Numbered from the stretch's first letter, positions 19,938 to 50,450 are shown. The stretch: 64,000 bases of DNA from Candidatus Fervidifonticultor secundus (GCA_031459385.1 JAVKIP010000010.1:36120-100119), one strand, 5' to 3'. The notes: a model not told the origin generated them from the letters alone. Translations and numbers: made by a program.

Positions 19938-20891
19938 TCAGATCCGTCGCCACAGCGTCCATGCGAGCCCGACGGCCAGGAGGCCCGCCAGGGTGCCGGC
20001 CGCGGTCGGTGCCGGCCATCGCCGCACGGGCGGGACGCCCGCGACGGTCAGCACCAGGTCGCCGGGGCGCAGGGCGCGCGCCCAGGCCCGCGCGTACCGC
20101 CTCCCCTCGCTCTCGAGTGGGGGCGCCGGCTGGAACTGCGGGGACCGAATCTCGGCCGGCGCGCCGGCGAACACCACCGCGCGGTCCACCGGCAGCCGGA
20201 GCGGACGATCGAGGACGGCCGCGCCCGCACCCGCCACGGCGTAACTGAACGAGAGCTGGTCGGCGCCGGGGCGCACGACGATCCGGTCGCGGATCTCCCC
20301 GCGCTCCACGCGCGGCTGGTGGAAGCCGGCGTGGTAGCGCACGTACCGCGCTCCCTGCGGCAGGGGGATGCCGACATCGCCGCGGTATGTGCGTACCGTC
20401 GTGTTGCGCAGGTGCCAGACCTCGAAGACGCGCACGTAGCCCGCGTGCACCTCGACCACCATGCCCACCAGCGCCACGCGCAGCGGGACGCCGGATGCCA
20501 CGTCGTACACCAGCAGCTCCACGCGGACCGGCCCACCCGCCACCACGACGTGCGCCGCGTAGACGACGCCGGCGTGGCTCGTCTGGACCAGATAGCGGCC
20601 GTCAGCCAGGCCGCGGAACGCGAAGCGCCCCGCGCCGTCGGTTCGGACCCGACCCACGTCCCGAGATCCGATGGGGCCCACGGACACGAGGAGGACGGCC
20701 TGGCCCGCGGCAGACCGGCCGGTCGTGCCGTTGCGGACGACGCCGGCGATCGCCCCGGCGCTGGCCTCCGGCGCAGGCGACGACCCGGAGGGCAGCGCGC
20801 CGGCTGCCGGTACGGCGGACGCAAAGATCGCAGGCAGCCAGAGCGCGACCAGTGCAGCGGCCAGGGGCGCGCGGCGCGCCGCTCTCCTCAC
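19938..20891 (-). CDS. Exported, membrane-anchored protein with carboxypeptidase-regulatory-like (Ig) domain
   Basis: Signal peptide, GAIAGVVRNGTTG...TDGAGRFAFRGL..GRY, C-terminal TM. Confidence 0.65.
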   Translation of the reverse strand: MRRAARRAPLAAALVALWLPAIFASAVPAAGALPSGSSPAPEASAGAIAGVVRNGTTGRSAAGQAVLLVSVGPIGSRDVGRVRTDGAGRFAFRGLADGRYLVQTSHAGVVYAAHVVVAGGPVRVELLVYDVASGVPLRVALVGMVVEVHAGYVRVFEVWHLRNTTVRTYRGDVGIPLPQGARYVRYHAGFHQPRVERGEIRDRIVVRPGADQLSFSYAVAGAGAAVLDRPLRLPVDRAVVFAGAPAEIRSPQFQPAPPLESEGRRYARAWARALRPGDLVLTVAGVPPVRRWPAPTAAGTLAGLLAVGLAWTLWRRI

Positions 20892-21163: not shown

Positions 21164-23154
21164 GGCGCACCCGCCGCCGGCCAGGCTGCGGGCTCCCCCA
21201 GGGGCAGCGCGGCCAGGTGCCGCCGGCGGCGCTCGGGCAGCGCTGCGAGCAGCGCGCCGAGGGCCAGGATCCCGCCACCGGCCCACAGCCAGGACACCAG
21301 CGGATGGATCAGCACGCGCAGCGTCGCACGGCCCTGGGGCGTCCAGTCGGCCAGGATCACGTAGAGGTCTTCACGCGGGGAGGCCCGGATCGCCACCTCG
21401 TGCATCGGCTGCCCCTGGGTCCGGTAGAACAGGCGCCGGGGCCGTAGGTGGCCGAGCGCCCGCTCGCCCCGCCACACCGCCACCGTGGCCTCGACGACGT
21501 CGATCCCCGGCCGCTCGGTTGCGTCCAGCCCCCGGAACTCGAGCGTGTACCCGCCGAACTGGAACCGTTCGCCCGCCCCCACGGTCGCCTGACTCTGCGT
21601 GGCGAAGGCGCTGCTCCCGGCGACGCCCGCCAGCATCAGGAGCACGCCGAGGTGCACCGTGTACCCCCCGTAGCGGCGGCGGTTCCGCCAGACGAGCTGT
21701 CCCAGCGCCCGGGCCACGGGCTCGCCGCGCGCGACGCGCACCCGCATACCGCGCACCGCCTCCAGCCCGATCGTTGCCACGACGAACAGCACCAGGACGA
21801 AGACCAGCAGCGCGCCCGCGGTCCGCACACCCGCAGCGGCAAGGACCGCGCCGCCCAGAAGGGCCGCCGCCGCCGGCCAGGCGAAGTTGCGCGCCAGCTG
21901 CTCGGGCGACGCCCGCCGCCAGGGCAGCAGCGGCCCCACCCCCATGAGCACCAGGAGGCCCACGGCGATGGGCGTCATCACACGGTTGAAGTACGGCGGC
22001 CCGACGTTGCTCTTCACGCCTTCGATCGCCTCGGTCAGCGCGGGGAAGATCGTCCCCACGAAGACCACGGCGGTGGCCACCATGAAGAGCAGGTTGTTGG
22101 CCAGGAAGGCGGTCTCACGGCTCACCACCGCCTCGATGGCCGCCTCGCGCCGCAGCTGGTCCCACCGCCACGCCAGCAGGCCGAAGCCAACCAGCAGCAC
22201 CACCGCCAGGAAGCTCAGGAACGCGGGGCCCACGGCCGACAGCGCGAACGAGTGCACCGACGCGATGATGCCGCTGCGCACCAGGAACGTCCCGAAGAGC
22301 GTCAACCCGAAGGCCAGGATGACGAGCGCCACGTTCCACGTCGCCAGCATGCCGCGGCGCTCCTGGATCTGGATCGAGTGGAGGAACGCGGTCGCCACCA
22401 GCCACGGCATCAGCGCGGCGTTCTCCACGGGATCCCAGGCCCAGTAGCCGCCCCAGCCCAGGACCACGTACGACCACTTGGCGCCGAAGAGCAGGCCGAG
22501 CGAGAGGCACGTCCAGGCCACCAGCACCCAGCGCCGCGCCAGCGCCACCCAGGTTTCGTCGAGCCGGCCGGTCACCAGCGCCGCGATCGCGATCGCAAAG
22601 GGCACGCTCATGCCCACGAACCCCAGGTAGAGCATCGGCGGGTGCGCGGCCATCCACGGGTTGCGCAGCAGCGGGTTCAAGCCCTGCCCGTCGGGCGGCG
22701 GGGGCACCAGGCGTGCGAACGGGTCGCTGGCCCATGCCAGCATGCCCGAGAAGAACAGCGCCACAGCCAGGAGCACCACCGTCGCCGGCGCCTGCAGCGC
22801 CGGATGCCCCCGGAGCGCGCGGATGCCGGCTACCAGATAGCCAGCCAGGATCAGCGCCCACAGCAGCAGGGCGCCGTCGTGCCCGCCCCAGAATGCGGTG
22901 AGCGTGTAGAACAGCGGCTGGGCTGACTCGCTGGCGAGCGCCACGAACCGCACCGAGAAGTCGCGCTGGAGGAGCGCCGTCCACAACGCCGCCGCCGCCA
23001 GCGCCACCAGCAGCGCCCACGCGGTTGCCGCACGGCGCCCGGCCTCCAGCAGGCCGCCGTGCTGACGGCGGATGCCGAGCACGGTGACCACGATGCCGTA
23101 GGCCGCGGTGACCACGGCCGCCAGGACCGCGAACCGGCCCACCTCACCCGCCAT
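21160..23154 (-). CDS. ccmF: Cytochrome c heme lyase CcmF
   Basis: WGGHDG, GLNPLL, HPP.LY.G, WGGYWAWDPVENA, SVHSF. Confidence 0.97.
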   Translation of the reverse strand: MAGEVGRFAVLAAVVTAAYGIVVTVLGIRRQHGGLLEAGRRAATAWALLVALAAAALWTALLQRDFSVRFVALASESAQPLFYTLTAFWGGHDGALLLWALILAGYLVAGIRALRGHPALQAPATVVLLAVALFFSGMLAWASDPFARLVPPPPDGQGLNPLLRNPWMAAHPPMLYLGFVGMSVPFAIAIAALVTGRLDETWVALARRWVLVAWTCLSLGLLFGAKWSYVVLGWGGYWAWDPVENAALMPWLVATAFLHSIQIQERRGMLATWNVALVILAFGLTLFGTFLVRSGIIASVHSFALSAVGPAFLSFLAVVLLVGFGLLAWRWDQLRREAAIEAVVSRETAFLANNLLFMVATAVVFVGTIFPALTEAIEGVKSNVGPPYFNRVMTPIAVGLLVLMGVGPLLPWRRASPEQLARNFAWPAAAALLGGAVLAAAGVRTAGALLVFVLVLFVVATIGLEAVRGMRVRVARGEPVARALGQLVWRNRRRYGGYTVHLGVLLMLAGVAGSSAFATQSQATVGAGERFQFGGYTLEFRGLDATERPGIDVVEATVAVWRGERALGHLRPRRLFYRTQGQPMHEVAIRASPREDLYVILADWTPQGRATLRVLIHPLVSWLWAGGGILALGALLAALPERRRRHLAALPLGEPAAWPAAGAP

Positions 23155-48667: not shown

Positions 48668-48814
48668 CGATTCTCCTCCATCCCCTCTCCGGCATGAGAT
48701 CCCACTGCAACAAGCATACATCAACGTTGCGGAGCAGGAATAGCGGTACTATACGCAGAAAGGCGCCCACCGGAGCCCCGAGCACAACTCCACACCCCCG
48801 AGGGAGGGACAACC

Positions 48815-48946
48815 ATGAAGGGAACGCTGCGCGTCGTCGTGGCGGCGATCGCCGCTATCCTGCTGTTCGGCACGACCACCCTCAGCGTCGCCAGGCAGGC
48901 CCCGGTCGTCCAGATCGCCGACGGCGATATGGGGGGCGGCCTCTAG
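48815..48946 (+). CDS. 43-aa secreted pro-peptide (putative signalling peptide precursor), not in the ORF track
   Basis: GAGGGAGG RBS; MKGTLRVVVAAIAAILLFGTTTLSVARQAPVVQIADGDMGGGL*. Basic n-region, hydrophobic core, S-V-A cleavage site, high GC3. Confidence 0.8.
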   Translation: MKGTLRVVVAAIAAILLFGTTTLSVARQAPVVQIADGDMGGGL

Positions 48947-49028
48947 GGTCAACGGCGGGGCCGGGGGAGGGCGGCCGGGCCGCTGCGTACCCCCAGGCAC
49001 CTGGCGGGCATGGGGGCTCCGCCGCGGG

Positions 49029-49058
49029 TTGCCGGGGGCGGGCGCTGTGTGCTAGATT
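49029..49058 (+). promoter_or_regulatory. Putative promoter of the HTH-TPR regulator, probably leaderless
   Basis: TTGCCG-N18-TAGATT with an extended -10 TG; ATG 9 nt downstream; no Shine-Dalgarno. Confidence 0.5.
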
Positions 49059-49067
49059 GGGTCCACC

Positions 49068-50450
49068 ATGGCTAAACCCTCCTCCGCCTCGCCCGTCCAC
49101 CAGTCGTGGCTCAAGGAGTTCGGCCGTCGCCTGCGTGCCGCCCGGCACAGGGCAGGCCTGAGCCAGGAGCAGCTCGCGGCGCCCGACCTGACCAAGGGCT
49201 TCGTCAGCCTCCTGGAGAGCGCGCGCTCGTACCCCTCGCTCGAGACGCTCCTGACGTTCGCGCAACGGATGCACACGTCGGTCGGCGCGCTGCTCTTTGG
49301 CGCAGAGGACCTCCGCCGGGAGACGGCGTTCAACCTCCTTCACCTGGCGTGGAACACCGATCCCGCTTCGCGGGGGGCGGATGCACTGCAACTCGTCGCT
49401 GCCGCAGAACTGGTCGCCTCCGACCTGCCCGCAGACCTCCGCGTGCGGGCAGGGCTGGTGCGGGCGCGGATCGCGACGATTGTCGGCCAGCTCGACGACG
49501 CCGGCCGGCACGCCGACGAGGCCGTGACCCTGGCCGAGCAGCAGCGGCTGCCCGGGGCGCTCGGCGCGGCCCTGGCGGTCCGCGGCGCGATTCACGAGCG
49601 CCGGGGCGAGTACGGCCAGGCCGTCGAGACGCTCGAGCGCGCCCTCGACATCATGCGCCGCTCGAAGACCCTGGCGTCCGAGGAAGGTGTATGGGCGCTC
49701 CTGTCCCTGGCCGTGGCGCGCTGGCGCAGGGGGGAACTCGAGGCCTCGGAAGCCGCGAACCGGCGGGCCCTGGCCATCGCCACGGACCTGCAGCTGCCGC
49801 GGTTGCGCGGCCGGGCGCTCAACAATCTGGGGCTGCTGGCCTGGAACCGGGGCCAGCTCGACCGCGCCGTGGAACTCTACAGCCAGGCGTATGCCGTCTT
49901 CGAGCAGACCGAGGATCTCCCCGAGATGGGCCGGGTGCTGAACAACCTGGGCCTCATCCGCCGGACGCAGGGATTCTACGACGAGGCGCTGGCGGTGCTC
50001 GCGAAGGCCCTGCGCATCCGCGAGCGCCAGGGCGACCTGCGTGGCCGCAGCGCGACCTTCGACGAACTTGCCCGGGTCCACCTGGCTTTGGGACACCTCG
50101 ACGAGGCCGCCGATGCCGCAGGCCGTGCGGTGGCCGACGCGCAGGCCGCAGGCGACCGGGGCCGCGAGGCGATCGCGCAGGTCACCCTCGGTCGGGTGCG
50201 CCGCGCGCAGCGGCGTTGGGCCGAGGCCACCGAGATCCTGCGTGCCGCCGTCTCGACGCTCATCAGCCTGCAGATGGCACCGGAGGCGGCAGCCGCCTCA
50301 ACAGAACTCGGGCTCCTCCTCAAGGAGACCGGACAGAGCGCGGAGGCGGCCGAGTTCCTGGCGCAGGCCGTCACGCTCGGCGCCCCTGCCACGGCCCCGT
50401 ACGGCGTGGAGAGCCCCCTCGAGGCGCATCTCGTCCCGCGCGACGCCTAG
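49068..50450 (+). CDS. XRE-family HTH plus TPR-repeat transcriptional regulator (RRNPP-like architecture)
   Basis: FGRRLRAARHRAGLSQEQLA....KGFVSLLE....PSLETL, then TPRs including ALNNLG and VLNNLG. Confidence 0.9.
   Translation: MAKPSSASPVHQSWLKEFGRRLRAARHRAGLSQEQLAAPDLTKGFVSLLESARSYPSLETLLTFAQRMHTSVGALLFGAEDLRRETAFNLLHLAWNTDPASRGADALQLVAAAELVASDLPADLRVRAGLVRARIATIVGQLDDAGRHADEAVTLAEQQRLPGALGAALAVRGAIHERRGEYGQAVETLERALDIMRRSKTLASEEGVWALLSLAVARWRRGELEASEAANRRALAIATDLQLPRLRGRALNNLGLLAWNRGQLDRAVELYSQAYAVFEQTEDLPEMGRVLNNLGLIRRTQGFYDEALAVLAKALRIRERQGDLRGRSATFDELARVHLALGHLDEAADAAGRAVADAQAAGDRGREAIAQVTLGRVRRAQRRWAEATEILRAAVSTLISLQMAPEAAAASTELGLLLKETGQSAEAAEFLAQAVTLGAPATAPYGVESPLEAHLVPRDA

Follow-up and report, generated by a model that had tools for sequence, protein, structure and literature searches.

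The window, a 64,000-nt stretch of DNA, contains a two-gene cassette that is conserved in a diderm phylum and reasonably likely to work as a peptide quorum-sensing module of the NprR type. A 43-codon propeptide gene lies 121 nt upstream of a 460-codon HTH-TPR receptor gene on a common strand, as the earlier note on this DNA had described. That note read the pair as a TPR receptor beside an exported propeptide of the RRNPP type. The reading is strengthened by the conservation of the pair, by variable and repeated propeptide tails resembling those of RRNPP signals, and by a SigH-type promoter like those of phr and nprX. New beyond the first reading are this SigH-type promoter, a separate near-leaderless receptor promoter, arms that could close the peptide mRNA, and orphan receptors in which the groove Asn is often missing. 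The features are collected in Table 1.

Table 1. Features of the cassette, with positions counted from the first letter of the window
Feature	Position	Strand	Basis
SigH-type promoter-like motif AGGAA-N17-GAA, propeptide gene	48736..48760	+	Enriched motif; function predicted
5' arm of inverted repeat enclosing the small ORF	48771..48779	+	Pairs with 49013-49021 in MFE and centroid structures
Shine-Dalgarno of propeptide gene, GGGAGG	48802..48807	+	Sequence; kept in relatives; 7 nt 5' of ATG
Propeptide gene, 43 aa	48815..48946	+	Codon score; orthologous ORFs 5' of receptor relatives
Predicted Sec signal peptide, residues 1-26	48815..48892	+	Basic N-terminus, hydrophobic stretch, cut after S-V-A
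Predicted mature signal DGDMGGGL, residues 36-43	48920..48943	+	After Ala35; inferred from relatives' repeat units, alignment A3
Second GGAGGG element 3' of propeptide stop codon	48966..48971 (within 48963-48974)	+	Recurs in close relatives
3' arm of inverted repeat	49013..49021	+	GGGG.C invariant in 13 aligned loci
Sigma-70-type promoter-like site, receptor gene	49029..49058	+	TTGCCG, 18 nt, TG-n-TAGATT; 9 nt before ATG
Receptor gene, 460 aa, XRE-HTH plus nine TPRs	49068..50450	+	Pfam; AlphaFold2 model
XRE-type HTH domain, residues 17-71	49116..49280	+	PF13560 (HTH_31) over cut-off
TPR superhelix, residues 79-436, predicted peptide groove	49302..50375	+	Helix pattern; R249, N253, R289, N293, E333

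A conserved propeptide gene with a predicted Sec signal

The small ORF bears out its earlier description, with a strong ribosome-binding site, coding-like codon use and conservation in relatives. Under a codon model trained on the own genome it scores +14.1, the remaining five frames scoring between -3.7 and -51.3; its GC3 is 0.93. The hydrophobic stretch averages 3.26 across 10 residues, and a polar tail lies behind an S-V-A (-3,-1) site at residues 24-26. Judged from this n/h/c anatomy and the S-V-A site, the propeptide is predicted to carry a Sec signal peptide. A Pfam search of the 43-residue protein gave no match. Past the stop codon, the second GGAGGG element has no conserved start codon behind it. 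Among 45 small secreted-like ORFs genome-wide, the SigH-type motif and an Ala-G/D core occur together only in the two that adjoin receptor genes.

The tails of 70 propeptides are variable and acidic, often with tandem repeats, and they contain many distinct cores. An exact internal repeat of at least 6 residues is present in 34 of the 70, an acidic residue falls within the last 11 positions in 68, and the pattern [AQS]-[GD]-[DGHPE] occurs within the last 16 residues in 57. Repeat units begin at or just after Ala, and the final copy often reaches the stop codon; examples are AGDTWPGGG x2 (L113), AGDALPGGG x2 (L155) and APELPGEN x2 (L032). This placement of the units points to a second cut after Ala35, which would make DGDMGGGL the likely mature signal. 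Repeated pheromones are described for Rap, NprR and AimR propeptides of Bacillota (PMC11343458, PMC9765709). Several propeptides of family f4 have long multi-copy units, such as PQGDDNGPGAVYGVPPLV (L140, L143, L144, L147, L152, L161 and L163), and these mostly lack the SigH-type motif.

The gene pair recurs across the host phylum

The receptor family was detected in 33 of 41 genomes by a single-protein search and in 80 of 94 genomes of the phylum with profile A1; at E 1e-60 the profile found it in none of the 12 genomes of family f5 and not in the one genome of f3. The earlier note had proposed looking for small ORFs beside receptor homologues, and such ORFs are there. In the first set, a signal-peptide ORF lies 5' of 45 of 70 receptor matches. 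These comprise 41 loci that passed our filter (39 with a 5-of-6 and 2 with a 4-of-6 Shine-Dalgarno match), L076, and L038, L051 and L067, which run off contig ends yet show repeated tails and were counted as paired. These counts take L064, L069_1 and L078_1 as paired, and L058 and L069_2 as false.

The 65 further loci consisted of 5 plus 60 picked among about 150 matches listed, with 37 more matches beyond those. After removal of seven loci for which anchoring failed, 58 remained, and a propeptide was found at 37 of them: 32 filter passes minus the false L137, plus six identified by eye that were too long or too far away for the filter (L143, L144, L147, L149, L161 and L163); one other locus was truncated. 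Some of the further receptors are 90-95% identical to first-set ones, so the loci are related and the counts overstate their independence. About one third of receptors have no adjacent peptide.

The filter combined a ribosome-binding site, a basic N-terminus, a hydrophobic stretch and a polar tail, and it was applied to genes preceded by 200 nt or more of free sequence. It was drawn up after the small ORF had been seen, which therefore passes by construction. It matched 5 of 599 genes in the own genome, two of them HTH-TPR genes (the own locus and the C58 paralog), and the background of secreted-like upstream ORFs is thus 3 of 597 genes. Flanking genes vary between loci (40 flanking proteins scanned), which suggests that the cassette travels as a two-gene unit and that its regulatory targets likely lie elsewhere in the genome.

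The expectation of a shared signal peptide with a variable C-terminus was borne out, but co-variation of that C-terminus with the receptor groove could not be told from shared ancestry. Core-peptide similarity correlates with groove identity at rho 0.32 and signal-peptide similarity at 0.26, and the partial correlations are equal (0.21 and 0.21). The core does no better than the signal-peptide control. Cores differ between close relatives, several types occur per genome, and peptide-less paralogs persist.

Beyond the phylum, we found no receptor relatives in viral contigs or phages, and plasmids gave four generic TPR matches. The single-protein search of genome contigs returned only generic TPR matches of other phyla, and a profile search of 1.84 billion representatives was dominated by long multi-TPR proteins.

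Paralogs and orphan receptors

The own genome encodes four full-length members of the receptor family. A paralog at C58:78716 (L078) has 30% identity and follows a gene for a propeptide in which GHGDGE[VI]L occurs three times; its cassette (C58:78487-81200) combines the SigH-type motif with this triple-repeat propeptide. Behind it lies a convergent HTH-TPR gene of divergent sequence without a peptide (C58:81173). The convergent receptor arrangement is also seen at L066, L069, L070 and L071.

An orphan receptor at C12:15241-16566 (L077), with 47% identity, lies between a YerC/TrpR-like gene and glnS. Its groove is altered, with no Asn and with Arg at position 333, and it is a candidate eavesdropper or peptide-independent regulator. 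The peptide-paired receptor L020 of another genus also lies before glnS, which suggests that the C12 orphan lost its peptide. At L019:1200-1500 (G016), the promoter motif and both arms of the inverted repeat are kept and the propeptide ORF is absent, apparently through a deletion between the Shine-Dalgarno and the second GGAGGG; this locus may be a natural non-producer. In both genus mates, a SagB-family dehydrogenase gene lies directly 3' of the receptor gene (L015:2-1435 and L016:2934-4328), and the own genome lacks this arrangement.

The receptor combines an HTH domain with a TPR superhelix

Pfam assigned HTH_31 and many TPR models to the receptor. The AlphaFold2 model has a mean pLDDT of 93.4 and a pTM of 0.86, and its 18 helices behind the HTH correspond to nine TPRs, a number within the range of 5-9 that defines RRNPP receptors. 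No separate three-helix bundle beside the HTH was assigned. The four invariant columns of receptor alignment A1 (S47, E50, P56 and S57) all lie inside the HTH; invariant recognition-helix residues in an XRE-type domain imply DNA binding.

The putative peptide groove in TPR5-7 is lined by R249, N252/N253, R289, N292/N293 and E333, positions set by TPR consensus numbering. Its arginines would suit an acidic peptide. The Asn motifs to which the earlier note had drawn attention are present, ALNNLG at residues 250-255 and VLNNLG at 290-295, but they match the generic TPR consensus, and conservation of N253 is limited to the own genus and other clades. It is N293 that the close peptide-paired relatives keep. 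We therefore dropped the motifs as diagnostic of RRNPP receptors. In sequence searches of the PDB, the receptor best matched consensus-TPR designs, kinesin light chain and LGN.

Groove Asn is partly associated with pairing. In the first set, Asn at position 6 of TPR4, 5 or 6 occurs in 40 of 43 peptide-paired receptors compared with 3 of 24 orphans. Among further loci, the corresponding figures are 36 of 37 and 10 of 20, the latter orphans belonging mostly to one f4 clade. The joint loss of peptide and groove Asn is real but partial. Several f4 receptors beside a tRNA gene have no peptide and keep the groove Asn.

In one metatranscriptome (a single RNA run), 0.11 of words were found, together with an identical 235-nt contig inside the receptor gene at depth 4 and short foreign matches. 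Nothing in this run fell on the peptide gene, and the run is uninformative on expression.

SigH-type and receptor promoter-like sites

The pattern [AG]GGA[AT]-N16-17-GAA is present 5' of 32 of the 38 propeptide genes with 190 nt upstream, compared with 71 of 2,846 other genes (2.5%); it was set after the alignment had been seen and from the SigH consensus. It recurs in 21 of 32 further loci and is missing mainly in family f4. Its shape agrees with the mapped Clostridioides difficile SigH promoters in Table 3 of PMC7438776. SigH itself (TIGR02859) is encoded in the own genome at G000:C11:57690-58283 (L081), scoring 350.8 bits against a cut-off of 294.8, and exceeds the cut-off in 84 of 94 phylum genomes, with family f5, which has no receptors, represented among them. 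SigH promoters are described for nprX and most phr genes (PMC4147580).

At the receptor gene, the TTG and TG.TA...T columns of the promoter-like site are invariant in 13 aligned loci. The receptor gene has no Shine-Dalgarno, and the site ends so close to the ATG that a near-leaderless message is suggested. With a promoter-like site of its own, the receptor would be made independently of the signal. A consensus promoter and terminator scan of the locus found none, the receptor site lying below its threshold.

An inverted repeat encloses the propeptide gene

The helix formed by the two arms exceeds that of shuffled sequences at 16 of 34 loci, with 7 loci skipped for short flanks. At the own locus it is borderline, being reached by 6 of 100 shuffles, and no arms were seen in the GHGDG clade. 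Folding of the whole region was no better than in shuffles (z -0.02). When cognate and non-cognate duplex energies were compared, the cognate pair was best in 4 of 36 cases, and the energies were dominated by length and GC.

The arms differ between clades and include G-U pairs, features that fit a stem in mRNA better than an operator. In the folding model, the arms can close the peptide mRNA through a predicted 5'-3' stem. We regard them as improbable operator sites for the HTH, since they vary by clade while the recognition helix is conserved and since they contain G-T pairs.

The host lineage has diderm markers and lacks a detectable Spo0A

The earlier suspicion that the host is not a member of Bacillota was confirmed. 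The own genome is 97.6% complete with 5.5% contamination. In it, Omp85/BamA and LpxC exceed their cut-offs, and Spo0A_C gave no match. The host phylum comprises 94 genomes, all of a single order divided into seven families. Close receptor homologues bear the source label 'Armatimonadota bacterium'. CSP1-3 is described as one class with one order and seven families (PMC11962464) and has been named Sysuimicrobiota, separate from Armatimonadota (PMC11604079). The host phylum is probably CSP1-3/Sysuimicrobiota.

In the search for an Opp importer, also suggested earlier, the binding-protein family SBP_bac_5 gave 54 matches, an unusually large Opp/Dpp-type set for a 3.3-Mb genome and a source of candidates for uptake of the peptide. 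Opp/Dpp abundance can also reflect peptide feeding (PMC11962464).

Relation to known RRNPP systems

The layout, the timing element and the anatomy of the signal resemble those of NprR-NprX from the Bacillus cereus group; we assign the cassette to no named subfamily, the homology seen being that of generic TPRs. Like NprR-NprX, it pairs an N-terminal HTH and nine TPRs with an adjacent 43-residue propeptide that has an export signal, a predicted one in this case. NprR-NprX has a SigH promoter for the peptide gene, an active peptide of 7-9 residues and import by an oligopeptide permease (PMC4147580). Unlike NprR-NprX, the cassette is found in a diderm-type host without a detectable Spo0A, where no role in a sporulation phosphorelay is expected. 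Its peptide gene lies upstream with a predicted transcript of its own, whereas nprX is downstream and co-transcribed, and its core is acidic, Gly-rich and C-terminal, whereas that of NprX is internal.

Rap proteins are the best bacterial structural matches, and the Rap-Phr systems of Bacillus and its phages share SigH-driven peptide genes, repeated pheromones and orphan receptors (PMC4147580, PMC11343458, PMC9765709). Unlike the protein described here, Rap lacks an HTH, and its targets are response regulators. PlcR-PapR, PlcRa-PapRa and AimR-AimP likewise place an HTH-TPR receptor beside a Sec propeptide; PlcR has fewer TPRs than the own receptor, and AimR is phage-borne. The peptide-before-receptor order, regarded earlier as the reverse of the usual one, is already known: papRa lies just upstream of plcRa (PMC4147580), and RRNPP peptide genes are described on either side of the receptor gene (PMC9765709).

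Structural comparison of the receptor model gave LGN (Z 29.8), Pins (29.0), RapI (28.5; rmsd 4.4, 350 aligned) and phi105 Rap (26.7), followed by NprR (23.9; rmsd 6.4, 338 aligned, 12% identity), MalT domain III (23.5), PlcR (19.2) and AimR (18.9). Foldseek and profile searches also place LGN and consensus TPRs first, and in a single-sequence PDB search RapF and pLS20 Rap were the only RRNPP matches. Since the eukaryotic proteins LGN and Pins tie with or outrank Rap and NprR, these matches point to a TPR fold of the peptide-binding type and do not establish RRNPP descent.

Proposed signaling route and alternatives

We propose that the predicted SigH promoter drives the propeptide gene, and that the propeptide would be exported via its predicted Sec signal and trimmed to an acidic octapeptide, likely DGDMGGGL. 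An Opp/Dpp-type permease would re-import the octapeptide, which would bind in the TPR groove of the neighboring HTH protein and switch its DNA binding. We infer export, the second cut after Ala35, import, binding, action between cells and timing at the transition to stationary phase.

Against this quorum-sensing reading stand the structural ranking of LGN and Pins, the third of receptors without an adjacent peptide, the equal results for core and signal peptide in the co-evolution test, and the 10 of 20 further orphans that keep Asn. Opp/Dpp abundance may reflect feeding on peptides (PMC11962464), and the peptide may fail to cross the outer membrane and so stay in the periplasm. With Omp85/BamA and LpxC present, an exported peptide would first meet periplasmic binding proteins, of which there are 54 matches, and a peptide of 720 Da comes close to the size limit of general porins. 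The same parts might then work within a single cell, which would trim the peptide in its periplasm and take it back, giving a delay timer or a sensor of secretion, of proteolysis in the periplasm or of competing food peptides instead of cell density. We regard this as unlikely: differing cores, coexisting types and peptide-less paralogs resemble, by analogy, a pherotype and eavesdropper pattern (PMC9765709). It is distinctly unlikely that the peptide is an output and not a ligand, that is, a secreted RiPP-like precursor or surface peptide beside its regulator. The SagB-family dehydrogenase genes behind the receptors L015 and L016 would suit such an output, as would a weak match to the RiPP-linked TPR model HaaT (64 bits against a cut-off of 1125), and repeated cores behind a signal peptide do occur in secreted precursor peptides. 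However, no modifying enzyme is conserved among the 40 flanking proteins and none flanks the own cassette, the cores lack the Cys, Ser and Thr used by SagB pathways, and receptors without a peptide often lose the groove Asn.

The RNA itself could also be the functional product: a structured small RNA, driven by SigH and containing a short ORF, that would act on the receptor gene or on other targets. In its favor, pairing of complementary arms that would close the transcript exceeds shuffles at 16 of 34 loci, the arms, which include G-U pairs, vary by clade although the HTH is conserved, and L019 retains promoter and arms without the ORF. Nevertheless, the ORF everywhere retains the anatomy of a signal peptide and repeats at the protein level, whereas the whole-region fold is unremarkable (z -0.02) and arms were not seen in the GHGDG clade; a primary role for the RNA is very unlikely. 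Just as improbable is a peptide that acts through a membrane receptor or other protein while the HTH-TPR protein binds a different ligand. TPR grooves of the same fold hold protein partners in LGN, MalT and others, and two-component genes neighbor some loci (L018 and L021), but these kinase neighbors are unconserved, whereas peptide and receptor genes are strictly adjacent at varying positions in the genomes and across several receptor clades of a quick tree. DNA of 71% GC commonly contains small ORFs, yet codon score, Shine-Dalgarno, conservation and the background of 3 in 597 leave a chance reading frame with negligible probability, and conservation in relatives refutes it as an account of this ORF.

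Implications

A literature search of mainly open-access main texts yielded no description of such a system in phyla other than Bacillota; the RRNPP_detector tables could be relevant here. Nor did we find a report of quorum sensing in CSP1-3; the word 'quorum' is absent from the main text of the PNAS paper on CSP1-3. Surveys, in the sections available, treat RRNPP signaling as a trait of Bacillota and mobile elements and search for it only there (PMC10075063, PMC9765709), and the authors of a structure-based phylogeny of these receptors call for an outgroup (bioRxiv 10.1101/2023.09.19.558401). If true, a phylum-wide version in outer-membrane bacteria lacking Spo0A would widen peptide quorum sensing to diderms, supply that outgroup and demonstrate a link of SigH to pheromone genes that does not depend on sporulation. 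As short unmodified peptides, the predicted signals could be added to enrichments of a phylum for which no communication system has been described.

A broader proposition is that a complete system of SigH-timed peptide communication belongs to the core traits of this non-sporulating diderm phylum, with many strain-specific types of signal, signals in multiple copies and receptors that eavesdrop. We hold it tentatively, as possible but rather less than probable. If it is true, the SigH-propeptide-TPR module is either older than sporulation in Bacillota or has crossed phyla intact, and it works across an outer membrane. The repeat units would then be a readable code of synthetic peptides for manipulating an uncultured lineage abundant in soil and hot springs.

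Other features of the window

The cassette is flanked by an upstream gene for a DUF2652/polyketide-cyclase protein and by a convergent glyoxalase gene, and GC content across the locus is flat. Elsewhere in the window, ARAGORN reported an unassigned tRNA with a four-base anticodon at 20571-20662 (+) and a long tRNA-Cys at 22735-22830 (-), each of which is possibly a false call or an unusual tRNA.
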